Assembly (NCBI GenBank): GCA_030295235.1
Contig: AP026126.1
Location: 1,736,001-1,800,000 of the forward strand
DNA length: 64,000 bases
Source of the DNA: Fistulifera solaris
Taxonomy: Eukaryota
Reading direction: 5' to 3'
The position numbers and the translations under genes were made by a program. Below, piece by piece: positions 12,781 through 39,070 of the stretch (position 1 is the first letter of the stretch; every line of letters starts with the position of its first letter). The notes under the pieces were generated by a model, which saw only the letters and a list, made by a program, of their open reading frames with translations, searched no databases and was not told the DNA's origin.

Positions 12781-12812
12781 GGGTACCGGTACCGGTACCG
12801 GTACCTGGTATC
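12781..12812. repeat. (GGTACC)n short tandem repeat in a divergent intergenic region
   Basis: gGGTACCGGTACCGGTACCGGTACCTGGTATC read directly. Confidence 0.8.
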
Positions 12813-13078
12813 GGTGCACATGCAGCCGCGAAATCATCATCGGGAACGCATGAAGTGGATGAAAGACGAAAGACCAGAAAGACCATACCAGGTACCGTAG
12901 TAGGCGGAAAAGGAATTACCTGGTACCGGTACCGATTGGGCCCTAAGAACTTGGTTCATTAGCTTATTGCGTTCTTACTTTCAGACCAACGAAGACCCAG
13001 GGAAGAGAGTGCAGCGAAGAGGCACAAACGAGAGTCTTTCCCTGGTCGGGCAACTAGTTTTTGCAGTGACGCTTCGTC

Positions 13079-13911: not shown

Positions 13912-16503
13912 TTATTTAAAGTCTCCGTCAAAACCAGTGAAACCGGTAAGCTTGAAAATAGGATAAAACGGTTTTTCCTGAAGCTGTGAACACCAATTCC
14001 AGGCGCTTGTTAATCTTCCATCGACGCAGCTACCGGCATCGTACCATAGATCTGAACCACTTCCATCAAATGCAGAGCGGAAGAAATCATATAAGATATC
14101 TTTTCGCAACTTTTCGACACCGCCAAAGCCGTTGTTGATCATGGACAGAATACCTTCGTCGTCTTTACAAATCCGTTCCAAGTTTTCGAGACAGCTTATG
14201 ATAGGGCCTAGGATGCGAGGGACTGTCATTTATAAATGGGTTAGAGACCAAGAAAGCTTTTTTATTGCAAAACCATTCAATGAAAGTCACTGCATACCTT
14301 GTGTGTATTTGTCGATGAAGCTGAGTGCATTGGGGACATTGTGATCACCCATGTGAACTACGCTGGAACCCACCCAGTGGCCCACACTGTTCCTTACTCG
14401 ATTCAAAACTTCCTGCATTGCCCTGTAGGCACGAGGAGATTGTTGCACGCGCTGCATACCCTGTCCCGTGTCCTGTAGCGAATAGGTCACAGATTCGCTC
14501 AAGAGATCCTCTTCCGCCATGGCCCAAAGGCGGAACATATCATCGATAATGTCACGCCAGAGTGTGAGACTTTGCAACGCGTAGTAAAACTGTCTTTCGT
14601 GACTGTGAGAAAGGCGTGAACCCGCTTCACCACTAACGATGCTGAGCGAGTAACCCTCTTCGATTTTATTTGGTGAAAAATTCGACTTCAAGAAATCAAT
14701 AATTTTGTCGATAGGCACTCTGTTGCTGTTGAGAAACGAGTTGTTGTCGCATATCGAATAGAGACAAAGATGGATATCGTCTTGACTCAATCGAGACGTC
14801 TGATACTTTCGCTTCAAAAGGATCACGGCTCGTTCTTTCTTACGAATCTCCGTATCGATGACCGACCGCGGTCGACCGAGTGCCAAAATTTCAATTGTTG
14901 CCGTTTCGATGAGCTCGTCGGACAACAAGCCTAGACCGCCTCTTTCCTCCAAAAACTTGTAGACTGACTCAATCGGACCTTTAACCGAAAACCCTAAATG
15001 AGGCATGACAGTCGGCGAAACTGCATCCTGAAGTAAATAAATAAGCTTCCCATACTCTGTCCTCATCTTTTCCGGATTCATTATCTTATGTCGCCGCGCG
15101 ATCTCAAACATTTGACGGAAAAACGATTCGTAATCACTGTAATTTTCGGCTTCCATAAGTTTTTGTGCTGCTTCGTAATCACAAGCCGTCACTAGTCCTC
15201 GTAAGACGGAAGTAACGCCTTTCAGTTGCGCATGCGTGCGCCTCGCTCCACTGGAAAAGCAACGATCGACCTCGGATGTGTAATCACAACAATACATGGC
15301 CGCTTCTACGAGTCGTAGCATTTTGCGTTCCCCGAGACTCAGACGCAGTGGAATATATTTGGAGCGTTCCTTGACAGAAGACTGTGATCCCGACGAATAT
15401 CGATCGTTGGTTGATCTGATTTCGAGTTGCTCCGCACCAGCTTCCAAGAATGTGAGCTCGGTATCTTCTTGATCGTGGAGAGTCGCTATAGCTTCGACTT
15501 CTTTTGCCGACGCATCGATGATTTCTTGCGCGTTCTCATCCGAGGAAAAGGCAACCGTGTATTGTGTGGTTTCAACAATTTTCAGTAAGACTGGCTTCAA
15601 TTTGTCTTCGTCCAAATATCCATTCTCCACGGCGTTTTTATTCAAACGGATCGTGACGCAAGTTCCAGATTCTCCACGCACGTGCTGAAATTGATTAAAT
15701 CCGTTCTCGGCAGTCGGTGAGGCTCCTTCTTCAAATGGTCGAACCAAATTGAATTTCTTGAGAGAGTCCCAATATCCTTCTTGCTCGGGTGCGCGGTCCA
15801 TGCCGACCTCAAATACATAGTAATCATCGAATTTGGCTTTAGTGCAAACTCGCACTCCGGTTCCGAGAGAACAGAAAGCGGCATAAAACCCACCGAGACT
15901 TTTACTCCGACAGTCGAGTGTGGTGGCTGAGGCGGCTTCGGTGGGTTCTTCTTCCATCGGACTCGTGACATCGGAATCAGATTTTGCCTCCTCCTTCTCA
16001 TCCTGATCATTTTCCTCTGTGTCGGTGGCGACCGATGATTCATCTGAATGATCCTCGTCGTCGTCGTCGTCAGGGGATGTGGAGGAATCGTCCAAGACGG
16101 CAGATTTTATGTTTTTCGCTGTACTGCTGATTAATCCCGCCCTTCCGATACCTAGTGAATTGATCAAATCTGTTCGTGTCATACCTGCTCCCATATCTGT
16201 GATGGACAAGGTCTGCTCGGTAGGATTGGCAGTGATACGTAAACAAAGACGATGTTGAAAGGCAGGGTGTTTTCGGATATTCGCAGGCGTGGCAAAGTAC
16301 ATGGCGTCCATAGCTTCCACAGCATTGCTAACCAAGTAACTTAATGCATCGGAAAGTGAATCGATGAGAGTCGTTTCCGAGCGCATCGCCACTTCAAGGC
16401 GCTCGACGAGAGGTTGTGGTAGTGGGTAGGTCGCTTGTGAAATATTCGTTGTCGAGTGTGTCGGAAGTTCTTCCGCATCTGTTTTGTTTTGCGGAGACGT
16501 CAT
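13912..16503 (-). CDS. HSP90-like N-terminal HATPase domain fused to a DUF2009/UPF0652 domain
   Basis: C-terminal YIPLRL..ER, NPEKMRTEYGKL, HMGDHNVPNAL and FDGSG..DAGSCVDGRLTSAWNWC match DUF2009. N-terminal LVSNAVEAMD...LSITDMGAGMTRTDLINSLG matches the HSP90 NTD. Intron 14223-14297 restores DKYTQVPRIL. Confidence 0.85.
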
Positions 16504-17884
16504 TGCGGATTGTCAGTGTGCATGTATTGTTCGAATGGGCGATCGCTAAGCCGCTATTTGACAGATTTGTGGTCCACTTCACTCCGACGGATGCCCTTTT
16601 GAATAATGGATGATGATAATCACAAAATAATTGTAATTGGGCGGCAAAATTTCTCGTCACGCTTTCCTCCCGACCGCTCGTTAAGTGAAACGAGCTCTTT
16701 CACATTAATCCCTATATCGATTTGACTTACCGGTACTGCCGTTGAAACTCCAGAATTTTAACGCCGTTTCCAGGTACATTCGCAATAACAAAAACCTTTT
16801 ACAAGTACTTAGAAGACGTTAGAGATCTGCTCTAGCGTCGTTGGCTACAATCGTTTCATCACAATCTATTCTCTTTTGGCGGAAATTGCAGTGCACGATC
16901 AGCCCATTCATGATGACGATATTCTTCATTAATTAACTACGGAGTCTTAAGAAACCCAAAGTAGACCGTCAATATTTCCAAGACTGCATTTCCGTTATGA
17001 ATCGATATTCTTCCGAGTGAGACTGCAACCTAACACTTTTTCGTTCTGCCATTTCATATTGCAATACACAAGTCGATTAGGATGTCGGAAAACGGAACGG
17101 ATCATTGTCTTCCGTAATTACTATCGACGCCAAGTTAAGGCGGCCTTTCGCCACGACTCCATTTCAGTCATGAACACATCATCACCCGCTGTGCGAAATG
17201 AAATAAAAATCTATTAGCCATGCTAGGAGCATGTTATTCGCGGTCAATCTCTTACAAATTACAATCGTTTCTGCTTTTTGGATTCTAGAAAAGGAGACTA
17301 TCTGCTTGTTGAATATCTTGGCGTTGCGGACCTGGAGTCATTGGTGGATCCACCAAGGAACAGTAGAGAAGATCGGTGTGCTCGCTCAAAAGTAGACTGA
17401 TCTTGTGTACCCATTTCGTCATCACAGCAGCAACGATTGAATGTCGATCGTCAACAGACAAGCGAGTCAAGGCCTTGACACGGTTTCGGAGACGCAGCGG
17501 GTCCATCAAACTCTCCAAGTTTCGCACTAATAGCTCGTCGTTGCAAGGGTATTCCGTACGATAAGACTTAAATGAAACATCCAAATGAGCAGAACTGGAC
17601 GAATAGGGTCATCTAACAGAAGACATGATTTCTGGAGCGGAACTCCTAATGCATTACATTCGTCGTCTCAATCCTGGTGTGCATGTATCGTTGGCTCATC
17701 GTACACAGTTGCAACAACAACAACCGATCCACTGGAGAAACTGGTCAGTATCGATCGTCGACCTCCATCGAACTTGCAACTGAACCAAATGGATCGGGAG
17801 AGCGACTGGACATATCTGGCGGTCGAAACCGTGGGAATGGTTTCAAGGCGTAGATGTGGATGGTGAAACTCCAGTAGTGAGTGC

Positions 17885-19780
17885 TTGGTACCCGGGCTTC
17901 GCTACATACTCGGATATGATGTCGTCGACACTTTACAGTCCAAACAGTTATTCATAGTTGGCGCTGGAGTCATAGGTTGCGAGCTGCTGAAGAATTTGGC
18001 TTCAATGAGTGTTGTTACCAAGGGTGACGGAAACGTGTGCTTGGCGGACATGGATACAATAGAAAAATCGAATCTCAGTCGACAACTTCTACTCAGAGAC
18101 AATGAAATCGGCGATTTCAATAGTGCAGCACAAAAAGCAGCGCGCCGCTTTTCCTGATATCAAGATTGAATCTCATACTAGCAGGGTAGGTGCAGGGTAA
18201 AGTACTCCGTTTGATGATGCGTTCTGGTCAAGTTGGATCGACGTTGTCCTGAACGCATTTACAGATGAACAGTGTGTTAGATACAGTAAGGCATTGGTTG
18301 ATGCTGGGACGATGGACTCCAATGGAAATGTACAAGTCGTTGTTCATAATCAAAGTGAATCTTATGCTTCCAGTGTTGATTCTGCGGAACCCTCGATCGC
18401 TGTTTACACGCTGAAAAATTTTCCATACGCTATTGCCCATAGCATCCGGTGGGCATGAGACCTATTTGATGAACTTTTTCAAAGACGGTGTGATCGTTCC
18501 AACCAGCTCATTGAATGCACTAAAGACACAACAATTGACGACATAATCGTTAAGTTGGTCAGCAAGAGGGTTCAAGAGATTGCTGTTGAAGTGAACAAAG
18601 AACTTTTGGCGCTCTCTATCGGAGTGCATGAAACCTGAAAAGTCTTACTTTGAATTGGGCTGCGCCGATTACTGTTCAGTTCTTTCTGGTCGCACCAAGG
18701 AATTTGATCAACGAGCACCCTTTGAAAAGTCGCGATGAAGACGGTGAAGCATTCTGGTGTGCTACTAGGAGACCTCCGCGAGAGTTACCATCCGGTCCAG
18801 AAGATAATGGAGCTGACCAAAACGTTATCAACTCCAATCCTGTTGACTTGGTCCGAGAGGCAGCATGACTTCGATTCGAACGAGAACGGGCAAAACATCA
18901 ACAAAGAAAGACTCTATGTTTATCTCAGAAGATGCCACATCAATTCTGAGCGTCGTTTACCAGCAGAATCGAAATGAAGCTGATAATATGGTAGAGTCAG
19001 ATACATCCGCCGAAGAAAGAATGAGAACAGCTTTGGACCATGCACGCTCACTTCTCTCTAACAAAAAAGAGATGTCGACCATCGATTTTGAAAAGAACTA
19101 CGAGGCTAACGGCCATGTCGCATGTGTCAATGCAGCCAGCGATTAGTGCGCACTTTGTTATGGAATTTCGCCAGTAGATCAAATGGGAACTCGGCGAGTT
19201 GCTGGCAACATAGTACCCGCTATGATAATTACCACCACGCTGGTATCGAGTCTCGTGTATTGAGCTACTAAAATTGGCGCAGAATCGACCACTTCGAAGC
19301 AATCGAAGTGCTTTCATCAATTTAACTCGTTCTTTCTTCGAATTCACGGTTATTGTTCCAGCTAAGCCTATTTCGATCTACAGTGGGCGATCGTACATAA
19401 TATGGGGCCGATTAACGATAAAGGAAAGTAAAATGGCTGCTGCAAAGGGAGGTATTACATTGGGATCTATGATGCGAAGACTAAACGAGATGATATCCGA
19501 TGACAGCAAGAAAATAAATACTTCTTCTATGTCGCTGGGTCCTTACCTCCTTTACCCCAGCTTCCTGCATGAAGACGACGACGACGAGATACTCGACAAA
19601 TCGTTGTGGGAAGTAATCGAGAATGCGCTTGATGAGAACCATTCGTGTGAAATGGAATTTCTCGTGGCGAGGACAATTCCGGTCCTACTAGTTCGCTTGT
19701 GGAAAACGGCAGCTTAGATGTTACCGTGACTGTTCTAGGATGAAAATGGAGAGGAAATTGAGTCGCCAGCGGCTAGCTAG
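17885..19780 (+). pseudogene. UBA1: Degenerate ubiquitin-activating enzyme E1 (C-terminal half)
   Basis: LFIVGAGVIGCELLKN, DMDTIEKSNLSRQ, GNVQVV, TLKNFPYAIAHSIRWA, FEKNYEANGH and IVPA..TTT motifs, interrupted by several in-frame stops and frameshifts. The catalytic Cys codon reads TAC (Tyr). 5' boundary approximate. Confidence 0.88.
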
Positions 19781-20619
19781 ACCTCTTCACTTCCATTTTG
19801 ACTATTGCTAGAAATGCAAAAGAGAAAGGAAAATCTATGGGAATGGATTCATTTTCGACCATCATCAGCGAAAACGTCGTCGATGAAATGTCACGACATT
19901 ACCTTCCGATCTATCGCTTCTTCTTCGCATGTTCTGTGTAGTAGATGAAGCTCAACAAATCACTGGACCAGGGTACAAATCAGGCATCTTAGTCAGACTG
20001 AAATATGCTTACAATAAAACAACCGCGTCCGCAACACGATAATATCCACTTGACGAAGGGCTTCGGCTTTCTTCAAGGATGTCTAAGAATGGATTGGACT
20101 ACTTGGCGGATTGCGTCGCCGACGCCGTAATCGACGCCATCATTGAAGGGCGTCAAGGATACGCTCTGCCATTCAAAATGCAATCACCAGTAGCGAGTGA
20201 ACGGGGAAAATACCGCAGCGTTGTGTTATGTGAGTTGGCGGCCACGGCGTTGATGAGACGTTTTCAACAACCCTGTTCAGTAGACCCATTCCACTGTGAT
20301 TAATTTAGCCGAACAGCTAGAAATGTCTTCCTGAAGAGAAAAAGGAATGATATATTTGAAGACTAGAGGAATGGTTTTGCATTGCGATCTGTTGGTTGTG
20401 GCAGCTTCATGACACATTGCTCACGAACAGTTTATGGAAGCATCACGAAACGGAATTATGGACAGTGTTAGATGGATGAGCGTCTCCGGTCGCCATTGCC
20501 CGCCACGCGCATCCATCAGCTGTATTTTATATATTAATTAAAATTATTTGGTTTTGAAATGAACAAGTGTTAGCATGAAGGTGTTGTGGTATACATTTTT
20601 CATTGTGCTGGGACATATG

Positions 20620-21175
20620 GGGGACCCTTGCTAGTGCCCGTAACCGCTAACCTATTTCTAGGATAACTCATAAGCACCGCAAGAGCTCCGAAGACGTTAA
20701 GCAGATGTCAACAAGCGATCACAAACGCCCATGTATCCGGTTGGGAGCGGAAAGGCGAATGTGGCTTTCATAAGCTGCTCAGCGGGTGAACCCCAAACCC
20801 CGCTCAACCGTTACCATTGCTTCACCAATCATTGGCGCACGCAGTTCTTCGGCACGCCTCATGGATCCCACAACTCAGGTGAAGAACTTTTCCCAGCACA
20901 ATGCTCCAACTGCGTGTTTTCCGGTAAGGCAGGAAGCCTCGCAAACAGGCAAGCGAATCGTCGAGACGACACGTGGTTGCCCTTTAGCGAGACGACTCCT
21001 CCTTCCTCGGGACATACGCACCACAACCCTTCATGCGCTCCCACTAAGTATTCAACCATACGGTCCCAAGCTGTGATCGCAGGCCACAGCTTTGGCAACA
21101 ACTGAATACGGGGAGGACATCAAACCTCTCTCAGTCGCCTTTGAGAGGAGATGTGAGAAGAAGAACGCAGCGAAA
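20620..21175 (-). ncRNA. Putative structured non-coding RNA, family unassigned
   Basis: Many nested helices, most of which extend via G-U pairs on the minus strand, and a GAAA-tetraloop terminal hairpin. Only short ORFs with no recognisable product overlap it. Confidence 0.6.
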
Positions 21176-21757
21176 AAAGAGGGAAACAAAAATTCAGCGA
21201 TGCTACTCCTATCGTAAAATCAAAATTATGTTTGTGTTCATAAACTCAGTTTAAAAATCATTTAGAGGGAGCTATCTAAGTATTTCTGTCTTGAGCAACG
21301 GTTTTTTCCAAATGTTGGGATCCCACGACCCACGAATGAATGCACGGTATACGCATCTTTATATTTTCAATAATGATAAACGCAGCTGCGAGCCCGGCCT
21401 GCTCGTATCACACAATCGGAATACGCGTTTGAAATCCAATTTTGACCAGGGAGAAAATAATGGATGTCGAATCATCCATTGGAGGCACTTTTTGTGCCTC
21501 GACGATGATAATGGTGAAATGTTGTTTTGTTTCTGTTTGCGTCGGATTATCATGCGCACTGTTCCAATCTTGTTGTTTCAGTCGCACTTCTTCGATGTGT
21601 AGCCCGTCTGCGTGTCTGCGTCTGAGTGACGGCGATGAGATTGAGCCGCAACTTGGGCTGCACTTTGCATTAGTCCTTTTGACTTGCTTTGTATTGATGT
21701 GACGCATTATTGCTAGTGGTAGTGAACACAATCTTCTGGAGCTGCTAAGAAAAGACG

Positions 21758-22525
21758 ATGCGCATCAACGCCTTTCTCCTCCTTGCATCGCAGCTTGCAA
21801 AATTGGCTGTGTCGTCGCCACTAGAAAACGACGATGACATTCTCTTGGAAGATTTTGAGAAGCCCCATCGTCACTGGGAAGAAATGAACGATCCTGTTAT
21901 GGGAGGAAAATCAAAGGGAACTTTTACGATAGAAGAAAATGTCGGTGTATTCAAGGGAAATGTCGTTAACGTTCCTTTTCTACATGCCCCGGGCTTTATT
22001 CAGGCGCGAACTACCGATTCACAACCCTTCCCCGATATCTTTCATTGCGGCGCGTTCCGTATCAAAGTTCAATCCCTTACTGATTACGAAGGTCTGAGAT
22101 TCAGTTTTGGTGACGCGCATGCTCCGCACGGAAAGCGTTTTGCCTTTGGCTACAAAACAAGTTTGTCAGTACCGACAAATGAGTGGACTGATGTGGTGAT
22201 TCCCATGTCCGACTTTACCGATTACTGGGACGATGCGACCGGCGATGCCATTGTTACATGTCAGGAAGACTCAAAATACTGTCCCACCGAAGAAGCTTTA
22301 CGAAATTTAAAGAAGATGGCCATCTGGGGAGAAGGAGTCGCTGGGCAAGTCCACGTCGAAATTCAGTCGATTTATGCTACACAATGTGCTTTAGGAAACA
22401 GCAGATACGTGGAGCAAGAAGACGCCCCTAGCCTGGCGCAAATGTGGATATCGTCAATATTCCGAGGGTGGACGAATCAGGTTTCGTTGCCGGCGCACCT
22501 TTTGGTTTACTTCTTCCGAAACTAG
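21758..22525 (+). CDS. Secreted CIA30 (complex I intermediate-associated protein 30-like) domain protein
   Basis: Signal peptide; W..MNDPVMGGKSKG, APGFIQA and EWTDVVIPMSDF motifs. Confidence 0.8.
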   Translation: MRINAFLLLASQLAKLAVSSPLENDDDILLEDFEKPHRHWEEMNDPVMGGKSKGTFTIEENVGVFKGNVVNVPFLHAPGFIQARTTDSQPFPDIFHCGAFRIKVQSLTDYEGLRFSFGDAHAPHGKRFAFGYKTSLSVPTNEWTDVVIPMSDFTDYWDDATGDAIVTCQEDSKYCPTEEALRNLKKMAIWGEGVAGQVHVEIQSIYATQCALGNSRYVEQEDAPSLAQMWISSIFRGWTNQVSLPAHLLVYFFRN

Positions 22526-38706: not shown

Positions 38707-38823
38707 AGGAACGACCATACTACGATGACAGCACCGCTTCCCGTCTGCTCAGCGAAGTTAAGCATCGTCAGGCCCGGTTAGTACTACGGTGGGGGACCAC
38801 GTTGGAATCCCGGTGTTGTTCTT
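38707..38823 (+). rRNA. 5S rRNA (single dispersed copy)
   Basis: GAACGACCATAC...AGTTAAGC (box A)...GGTTAGTACTACGGTGGGGGACCAC (box C)...GTTGTTCT. The 5' and 3' ends pair to form helix I. Confidence 0.95.
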
Positions 38824-39070
38824 TGCCGATTGACCGCCGACCTCCAACAATCGTCACATCACCCATCAATCATCACATCGTACATCGTCATCAATAAAAA
38901 TAAATAATTTATTCGAAAAACAGCACGCTGTCATTCCTCTAGGCATAAAGAGTTTCAGGAAAAATTTTTGTGGCAGCCGTAATAAGCCTTAAATCGACAA
39001 GACTCGAGGCAAAAGAAAAGAGGTGATAGCGCCTATTTGCCCGATTTTCCTGCGTGTCAACATCGTCAAA

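Follow-up and report, generated by a model that had tools for sequence, protein, structure and literature searches.

In a 64,000-nt stretch of Fistulifera solaris DNA (contig AP026126.1, positions 1,736,001 to 1,800,000; hereafter the window, whose own numbering is used throughout), a region between two plus-strand genes carries a large RNA fold. It is secure that the fold is real and strand-biased, and that it is part of a dispersed multicopy unit with a constrained core. The structured domain occupies 20573–21154 on the minus strand. It begins with two hairpins at the 5′ end, after which comes a domain of 464 nt closed by two long-range helices, A and B. It lies within a repeated unit of ~1 kb at ~20470–21450, whose edges, taken from the summed depth of sequencing run X4 and from clipped contig ends, are fuzzy. 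We tentatively read 20470–21450 as one copy of a dispersed, protein-less repeat of ~1 kb, a non-autonomous mobile element, a unit derived from a long terminal repeat (LTR) included; this reading falls a little short of being probable. A transposon-borne sequence, named in advance by the first-pass annotation as an outcome contrary to its own proposal, is slightly more likely than a gene for a cellular non-coding RNA (ncRNA). That annotation had read 20620–21175 as an undescribed ncRNA. Its RNA-like structure, minus as the most plausible strand and the lack of an Rfam family stand, while the single orphan gene, the 3′ end and the main helix do not.

The minimum free energy of 20570–21160 is −236.5 kcal/mol on the minus strand (z −6.0) and −209.9 kcal/mol on the plus strand (z −5.1), and none of 100 shuffles is as good on either. 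The shorter segment 20570–21040 gives z −5.3 on minus and −4.6 on plus. The ends 20570 and 21160 were picked after the helices had been seen, and these z values are somewhat inflated; a sliding profile that does not depend on this choice has the same peak. Among its 25 windows of 591 nt over 14570–21770 (minus strand, 15 shuffles per window), the one starting at 20570 reaches −6.3 and the other 24 lie between −2.9 and +2.0. Folded as first proposed, the interval 20620–21175 is no better than chance on either strand: minus has −204.4 kcal/mol with z −1.54, matched by 9 of 100 shuffles, and plus has z −1.41, matched by 8 of 100. The fold becomes exceptional because the 50 nt beyond that 3′ end pair with two internal segments. 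The long-range helix formerly assigned to 21043–21020 and 20765–20742 has a pair probability of 0.00 once these 50 nt are added, and is predicted only with the domain cut at the ends of that helix. It is replaced by the pairings 21036–21020/20590–20573 (helix A) and 20903–20891/20613–20601 (helix B), all Watson-Crick, with probabilities of 0.96–1.00. The practical lesson is that an assumed 3′ end wrong by 50 nt hid the signal wholly (z −1.5 vs −6.0).

Helix A joins its 5′ strand at 21020–21036 to its 3′ strand at 20573–20590 by 9 + 8 Watson-Crick pairs (probabilities 1.00 and 0.96), with a one-base bulge at 20582. Helix B has 13 perfect Watson-Crick pairs between 20891–20903 and 20601–20613 (probability 0.98). 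Both 3′ strands lie outside the interval of the first-pass annotation. Perfect inverted repeats of at least 12 bp within 700 nt number eight in the 64 kb, at five loci, and helix B is among them. Arm C (20926–21004, minus) stacks AAGG/CCUU, AGGAG/UUCCU, GUCUCGC/GCGAGGC, GGGCAA/UUGCCU and GUCGU/ACGAU, with pair probabilities of 0.90–1.00 in all three contexts. Two arms proposed at first, GUCUCGC/GCGAGGC and AGCGGG/CCCGCU, are recovered at 1.00 and 0.76. Another arm with the 8-nt loop CUCCCAAC (20720–20763, minus; 0.67–0.99) is the part best kept in a more distant relative, described below. The terminal hairpin of 63 nt (20624–20686, minus) is capped by a GAAA tetraloop, and its tip CCUA-GAAA-UAGG is confirmed. 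It is predicted to fold at −27.1 kcal/mol on minus (z −4.93, 0 of 200 shuffles as good); the plus strand reaches only −12.1 kcal/mol (z −1.52, 22 of 200).

The two 5′ hairpins precede this domain. In hairpin H2 (21038–21115, minus), CUCCC/GGGAG closes a 12-bp stem, 21109–21098/21059–21048, and an inner hairpin at 21092–21068; the pair probabilities are 0.84–0.98 in a 671-nt context. The stem had been seen before as a hairpin at 21109–21048, and it holds with its 12 bp and four G-U pairs (z −1.94, 10 of 200 shuffles as good). Hairpin H1 (21117–21154, minus), likewise described before, has a predicted −15.4 kcal/mol and z −3.75 (0 of 200), nearly equalled on plus (z −3.18). H1 lies outside the best-conserved core. 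In run X1 the bin 21116–21216 is nearly without depth and a clipped end stands at 21124; parts left uncovered in X1 prove nothing. Next to H1 is a purine-rich tract of GAA repeats and A runs on plus (21155–21195), a pyrimidine tract on minus, whose length differs among copies; an AGA insertion after 21155 accounts for 277 of 663 of the X4 depth. A TATA-like motif is present on minus at ~21356–21362, in the AT-rich, more variable part of the unit. By eye, the minus strand also has candidate splice-site-like strings, AG|GU at 21126/21125 and a branch-point-like CUAAC at 20572–20568, and a candidate pyrimidine/AT tract ending in CAG at 20520.

The RNA strand is very probably minus. We assign it because of the G-U counts, the fold energies and the difference in z of the terminal hairpin, all of which come from predicted folds. 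The bias of G-U pairs to minus noticed earlier is borne out: of the 202 pairs on minus 24 are G-U, and of the 179 on plus 8 are. Being purely Watson-Crick, helices A and B carry no information on strand. All runs compared are contigs, which show neither strand nor RNA ends, and we infer both strand and ends of the transcript.

Nine public runs from six studies contain part of the stretch, and the contigs of four were compared over 19500–22500. Runs X7–X9 share 0.04–0.06 of its words only, and nothing was drawn from them. The sequence had been called an orphan; this is wrong, since it is multicopy with many variants. The summed depth in X4 is 77 over 20409–20509, 348–995 over 20510–21418, 109 over 21419–21519 and 22–58 elsewhere, and single-copy contigs of this run have depths of 8–24. 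X4 places 166 contigs on the 3 kb, with identities of at least 99% (63 contigs), 95–99% (50), 90–95% (33) and below 90% (20). The record of this run says only 'RNA?'; it is probably genomic DNA, because all 30 bins are covered, intergenic DNA and two haplotypes included. In X1 the depth is 400–1736 over 20611–21115 and ~9 for the CIA30 gene next to the unit. The elevated depth together with the many variants makes the ~1-kb unit a dispersed repeat. Since summed contig depth does not measure copy number, a caution given by the tool itself, 'tens of copies' is a rough figure. A single-copy orphan ncRNA gene at 20620–21175, as first proposed, would suit the intergenic position and the lack of an Rfam family. 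It is refuted on copy number unless the excess depth comes from another organism in the run, its interval as given folds no better than shuffles and the closing helices lie outside it; we consider it extremely improbable.

Clipped contig ends at 20489, 20580, 20598, 21186, 21254, 21314, 21342/21364 and 21415, aligned by eye, continue into diverged homologues of the window sequence (for example 14 of 18, 20 of 25 and 12 of 14 identical positions). A single contig, in X1, departs from the element at 21124; the 255 nt that follow are unrelated, and it represents a different genomic context. The X1 depth rises from 92 to 1736 towards 21115, and 5′-truncated plus-sense retrocopies were considered as its source. 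This was rejected, as X4 has no such gradient. Contig depth cannot rank the parts of a sequence, and therefore the gradient in X1 is not used as evidence.

The core is present in RNA. X6, the sole library recorded as RNA, is a freshwater metatranscriptome whose contigs cover 20598–21141 at 92–98% identity; carry-over of DNA is possible. On one side the contigs stop at 21141; on the other they extend for 184 nt or more beyond 20598. Over the element they have a depth of 2.6–9.9, and that of a CIA30 contig of the same organism is 3.9; neither a discrete end nor high abundance is seen in them.

Several substitutions in other copies preserve the pairing. The clipped end of an X6 contig, aligned by eye with 20648–20676 in the terminal hairpin, is identical at 24 of 29 positions and differs at 20649, 20654, 20659, 20664 and 20672. 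In minus sense, the pair 20659–20654 changes from A-U to C-G and the pair 20664–20649 from A-U to U-A, and a G-U pair becomes G-C through the change at 20672. In 200,000 simulated sets of five random substitutions, the frequency of two compensated pairs is 7e-4, and 0.9% of the sets leave every pair intact. Changes of A to G (minus sense) at 20832, 20833 and 20585 in copies keep a G-U pair on minus only; the variant at 20585, a U-G pair in helix A, was read from the clipped ends at 20580 and 20598 in an alignment by eye. The copy variants at 20712, 20974, 20986 and 20582 fall on unpaired positions. Those at 20982, 20578 (about half of the X4 depth) and 20579 (X6) break a pair unless the partner has changed as well, and the partners are outside the visible sequence.

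These changes bear on whether there is an RNA function at all. Inverted repeats arising at the DNA level, with a GC-rich core homogenised by ectopic GC-biased gene conversion and the fold as a by-product, would account for perfect Watson-Crick pairing in helices A and B and for a fold on either strand (plus z −5.1). The core coincides with a GC island of 52–55% at ~20600–21200 between flanks of ~40%, and gene conversion alone would give a uniform core with diverged flanks. We nevertheless find this explanation improbable. Against it stand the two compensated pairs in the terminal hairpin, several changes tolerated as G-U on minus only, the strong difference of that hairpin between strands, and the presence of the element in an RNA library.

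A more distant relative comes from an ENA metagenome assembly as P0001, a predicted protein of 86 residues encoded on a 559-nt contig, which is the single library match to the plus frame 20701–21102 (E 2.4e-11, 51% identity); P0002, a second and nearly identical member, is on a 1106-nt contig. The match and the 134 open codons at 20701–21105 would be in favour of a protein-coding exon or pseudogene on plus. In tblastn, however, the similarity to P0001 shifts its reading frame after ~20830–20851, and the TAA stop at 20698 of the window corresponds to a Q in P0001. The frame shift and the stop indicate homologous non-coding DNA, not a gene. The frame has no Pfam match and no homologue by word search among proteins of similar length, and the plus strand is T-poor, which by itself lengthens open frames. 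A coding origin is close to refuted. The best-kept block in the comparison with P0001 is 20719–20766, where 1 of 16 residues is changed and which corresponds to the arm with loop CUCCCAAC. Of 29 nucleotide changes inferred from the amino acids by minimal change, a weak reconstruction, 6 preserve a pair, 2 break one, 8 have a partner that is not seen and 13 are unpaired. They may point, weakly, towards selection on pairing.

We favour a mobile unit because a dispersed non-coding repeat has that prior expectation, one copy stands in a different context, and expression is low. The family would keep a non-coding RNA of ~580 nt, from 21154 to 20573 on minus, with two 5′ hairpins, a 464-nt multi-branched domain held by the 17-bp helix A and the 13-bp helix B, and the terminal 63-nt hairpin with its GAAA cap. 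The folded RNA may be the part recognised by machinery supplied in trans, and such recognition would conserve the fold while the flanks drift. Mobility, like any role of the fold in propagation, is what we infer from this pattern.

Several observations weigh against mobility. The edges of the unit are not sharp, and in the by-eye alignment the similarity among copies fades gradually. No second copy is present within the window (blastn, word size 9, returns the query itself and one chance match of 19 nt). An empty site is not seen, as no X4 contig joins across the element. At the depth-defined ends there are no TG..CA termini with a 4–6 bp duplication and no terminal inverted repeat (TIR) among 1285 chance-level candidates, and the element has neither a tRNA-, 5S- or 7SL-like head nor a clean poly(A) tail. 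In its core, this copy departs from the majority sequence at ~5 of 422 positions: a 320-nt X1 contig (20595–20914, depth 408) has one difference from the window and the next one (20916–21016, depth 182) has four in 101. The flanks differ by 8–13%, on the right in variants of depth 8–59 (15 substitutions and 6 gaps in 158 nt; 9 in 117). A dead transposon copy should not show such a contrast between core and flanks, and either selection or gene conversion is needed. Both haplotypes also seem to carry the element at this locus. X4 contains a second haplotype or homeologous copy of 19500–22500 that is 6–10% diverged (34 of 327 positions in CIA30, 9 of 141 in spacer), with indels that skip 19920–20015 (96 nt), 20210–20397 (188 nt) and 21412–21488 (77 nt); the 188-nt form occurs also in X1. 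A single-copy X4 contig (depth 18.3) connects the right flank with the same unique sequence and has the 77-nt deletion, joining 21411 to 21489. The element would then be older than the haplotype split of 6–10%. A neutral core of that age is expected to have diverged by several percent, yet this one differs by ~1%, in favour of gene conversion or selection acting there.

The same contrast is what a non-mobile multigene family would give. In this explanation the units encode a cellular structured ncRNA of ~530–580 nt and have multiplied together with their flanking sequence. Purifying selection or concerted evolution would maintain the core while the flanks with promoter and terminator drift, as in dispersed copies of small nuclear RNA (snRNA) or 5S genes. 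The locus apparently common to two diverged haplotypes, the compensatory or wobble-compatible substitutions and the absence of transposon termini all favour it. So does the distant relative, which retains the arm 20720–20763 nearly unaltered, loop included. The minus strand is free of any run of four T from 21171 to 20545, and X5, a run labelled as another organism, contains a 288-nt contig with only three differences. On the other side, Rfam has no matching class, and we know of no RNA class of such size and copy number in such algae. A promoter was not identified, unrelated sequence flanks one copy at 21124, and the X6 contigs extend past the 3′ end of the fold with no discrete RNA end. The X6 depth is low despite dozens of copies, a weak point as contig depth is a poor measure. 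We regard a non-mobile gene family as possible but doubtful. Its fuller form, in which tens of dispersed genes encode a previously unseen structured ncRNA of ~530–580 nt in diatom-like algae and are kept by purifying selection across haplotypes and species, is rather unlikely. In that form the arm 20720–20763 with loop CUCCCAAC would be a recognition module, and the two perfect long-range helices would clamp the fold.

Known families and classes were compared with the element one by one. The first-pass annotation had matched no signature motif of a known family, and Rfam gives no match at gathering score in the element; the release used, Rfam 15, includes snRNAs, the signal recognition particle (SRP) RNA, RNase P/MRP, telomerase RNA, group I/II introns, ribozymes and riboswitches. 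The 1.2 kb around the element yield three chance-level matches at E ≤ 10 (E 1.7–4.3), all far below gathering score. No self-cleaving ribozyme family (hammerhead, twister, hepatitis delta virus (HDV)-like) appears at this threshold; HDV-like folds easily escape sequence models. The TTAGGG type of telomere repeat is assumed for diatoms. No telomerase template (~1.5 repeats, at most two mismatches) is found in 20400–21500, and four chance-level matches lie elsewhere. ARAGORN finds no tRNA-like sequence, and there is no tRNA, 5S or 7SL match of Rfam in the element. Pfam domains are found in 0 of 16 open reading frames (ORFs) in or beside it. Several copies exist and the core is better conserved than the flanks, the generic pattern of a multicopy ncRNA.

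For a short interspersed nuclear element (SINE), the internal A and B boxes are represented, by eye, only by partial box-like strings 255 nt apart. A SINE tail could correspond to the variable GAA/A-rich tract at 21155–21195 on plus; yet minus is the strand better supported, and copies have homologous flanks. The TG..CA candidates that have a duplication end at 21248, 21260 or 21558 only, and none of these fits the right edge at ~21440–21480. A diverged solo LTR may still be compatible, the edges being approximate. The best TIR candidate has an 8-bp AAAATTAT duplication and a 7-of-10 inverted end at 20548/21223; it is at chance level and lies in AT-rich sequence within the repeated region. Concerning introners, this copy lies between an E1-type gene and CIA30, with no coding frame beside it on minus.

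Exact words of the core were searched in other contigs. In metagenome contigs, L001 shares 23 nt in a bacterial-looking ORF, and among genome contigs L002, a Terriglobia metagenome-assembled genome, shares 22 nt; both were rejected as chance matches. Viral contigs have no match. At the protein level, the plus frame 20701–21102 has no word-sharing candidate, 20774–21073 has none at E ≤ 0.01 among proteins of similar length, and P0001 as query finds only itself, again among proteins of similar length. In the literature on diatom repeats, SINE and other non-autonomous elements, introners and diatom solo LTRs no description of such an element was found; published diatom repeat libraries may contain the family as an 'unclassified' consensus.

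Both edges of the unit carry a palindrome. The left one, ATGGATG-N31-CATCCAT, is at 20472–20516, and the right one, ATGGATG-N6-CATCCAT, is at 21460–21479, within the 77 nt that the other haplotype lacks. These two edges account for four of the 16 ATGGATG sites of the window. The arrangement may be likened, from its sequence, to a recombinase core site or an end hairpin.

The surroundings of the locus are gene-dense eukaryotic sequence, and the element lies inside a 2-kb gap between two plus-strand genes. The gap free of genes noticed in the first-pass annotation is thereby borne out, and the element is intergenic. Its left neighbour is an E1-type ubiquitin-activating gene (17867–19717, +) with ThiF, SCCH and UFD matches, which consists of at least five short frames and has either many introns or is decayed. 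Its right neighbour is the CIA30 gene (21749–22525, +). A perfect 7-bp hairpin, GAGGCAC-TTTTT-GTGCCTC, is located at 21491–21509 in unique DNA ~250 nt upstream of the CIA30 frame. Elsewhere in the window, a complete 5S rRNA gene (38707–38824, +; 102 bits, E 3e-21) is the sole Rfam match at gathering score in the 64 kb. A cluster of CGGTACC-type palindromic repeats at 12782–12934 makes up four of the eight perfect inverted repeats of at least 12 bp. A 741-codon open frame at 14287–16512 (−) has a weak HATPase_c-like N-terminus and a full DUF2009 domain (non-canonical E2, E 6e-141).

Eukaryotes have few large structured RNAs beyond the classical families, and in stramenopile algae such RNAs have hardly been explored. 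Three properties meet in this element: a fold six standard deviations beyond shuffles, pair-preserving substitutions, and a core that is nearly identical in dozens of copies with drifting flanks. If mobile, it is a protein-less element that shows no hallmark of the transposon classes compared above, and the machinery that moves it should be recognisable from its RNA fold. If cellular, it is a new multicopy RNA gene. Were the gene-family reading true, the element would represent a new class of large structured RNA in eukaryotes, one with a cellular role, or else a new RNA-only selfish element.

Non-autonomous retroelements with a structured RNA include RIME of trypanosomes and the ~550-nt SINEs of Entamoeba. 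Like SINE-like elements, the element described here is protein-less, measures a few hundred nucleotides, has tens of dispersed copies, is probably transcribed, and contains a conserved RNA stem-loop module. Unlike them, it has no tRNA, 5S or 7SL head and no A/B boxes (Rfam, ARAGORN), and no clear A-rich tail or target-site duplication; the flanks of its copies are homologous, and the fold is much larger and closed by long-range helices of 13 and 17 bp.

Solo LTRs are a second comparison. A study of a model diatom attributes most LTR content to solo LTRs and other non-coding remnants of transposable elements, and solo LTRs of the diatom Copia type (CoDi) are the commonest non-coding dispersed repeat in that one diatom (10.1101/2025.10.24.684338). 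The unit resembles them in its LTR-like size of ~1 kb and in the division into an AT-rich variable part and a better conserved structured part, comparable with U3 and R-U5. It differs in that its edges have no TG..CA with a 4–6 bp duplication, no copy is beside gag-pol among the visible clipped ends, and its core is near-identical at a locus predating the haplotype split. Introner-like elements are multicopy, intron-generating repeats in fungi and algae (PMC4457414; PMC12130899). The likeness extends to a multicopy, non-coding sequence of a few hundred nucleotides with ends joined by pairing and candidate splice-like motifs on minus; this copy differs in being intergenic with no flanking coding exons, and its candidate splice-like motifs lie partly in the variable flanks. 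Finally, compared with dispersed snRNA, 5S and spliced leader RNA genes, the element is three to five times longer, has no Rfam family and is not shown to be highly abundant, whereas it shares with them an invariant RNA core, diverged flanks at many loci and pair-preserving substitutions.

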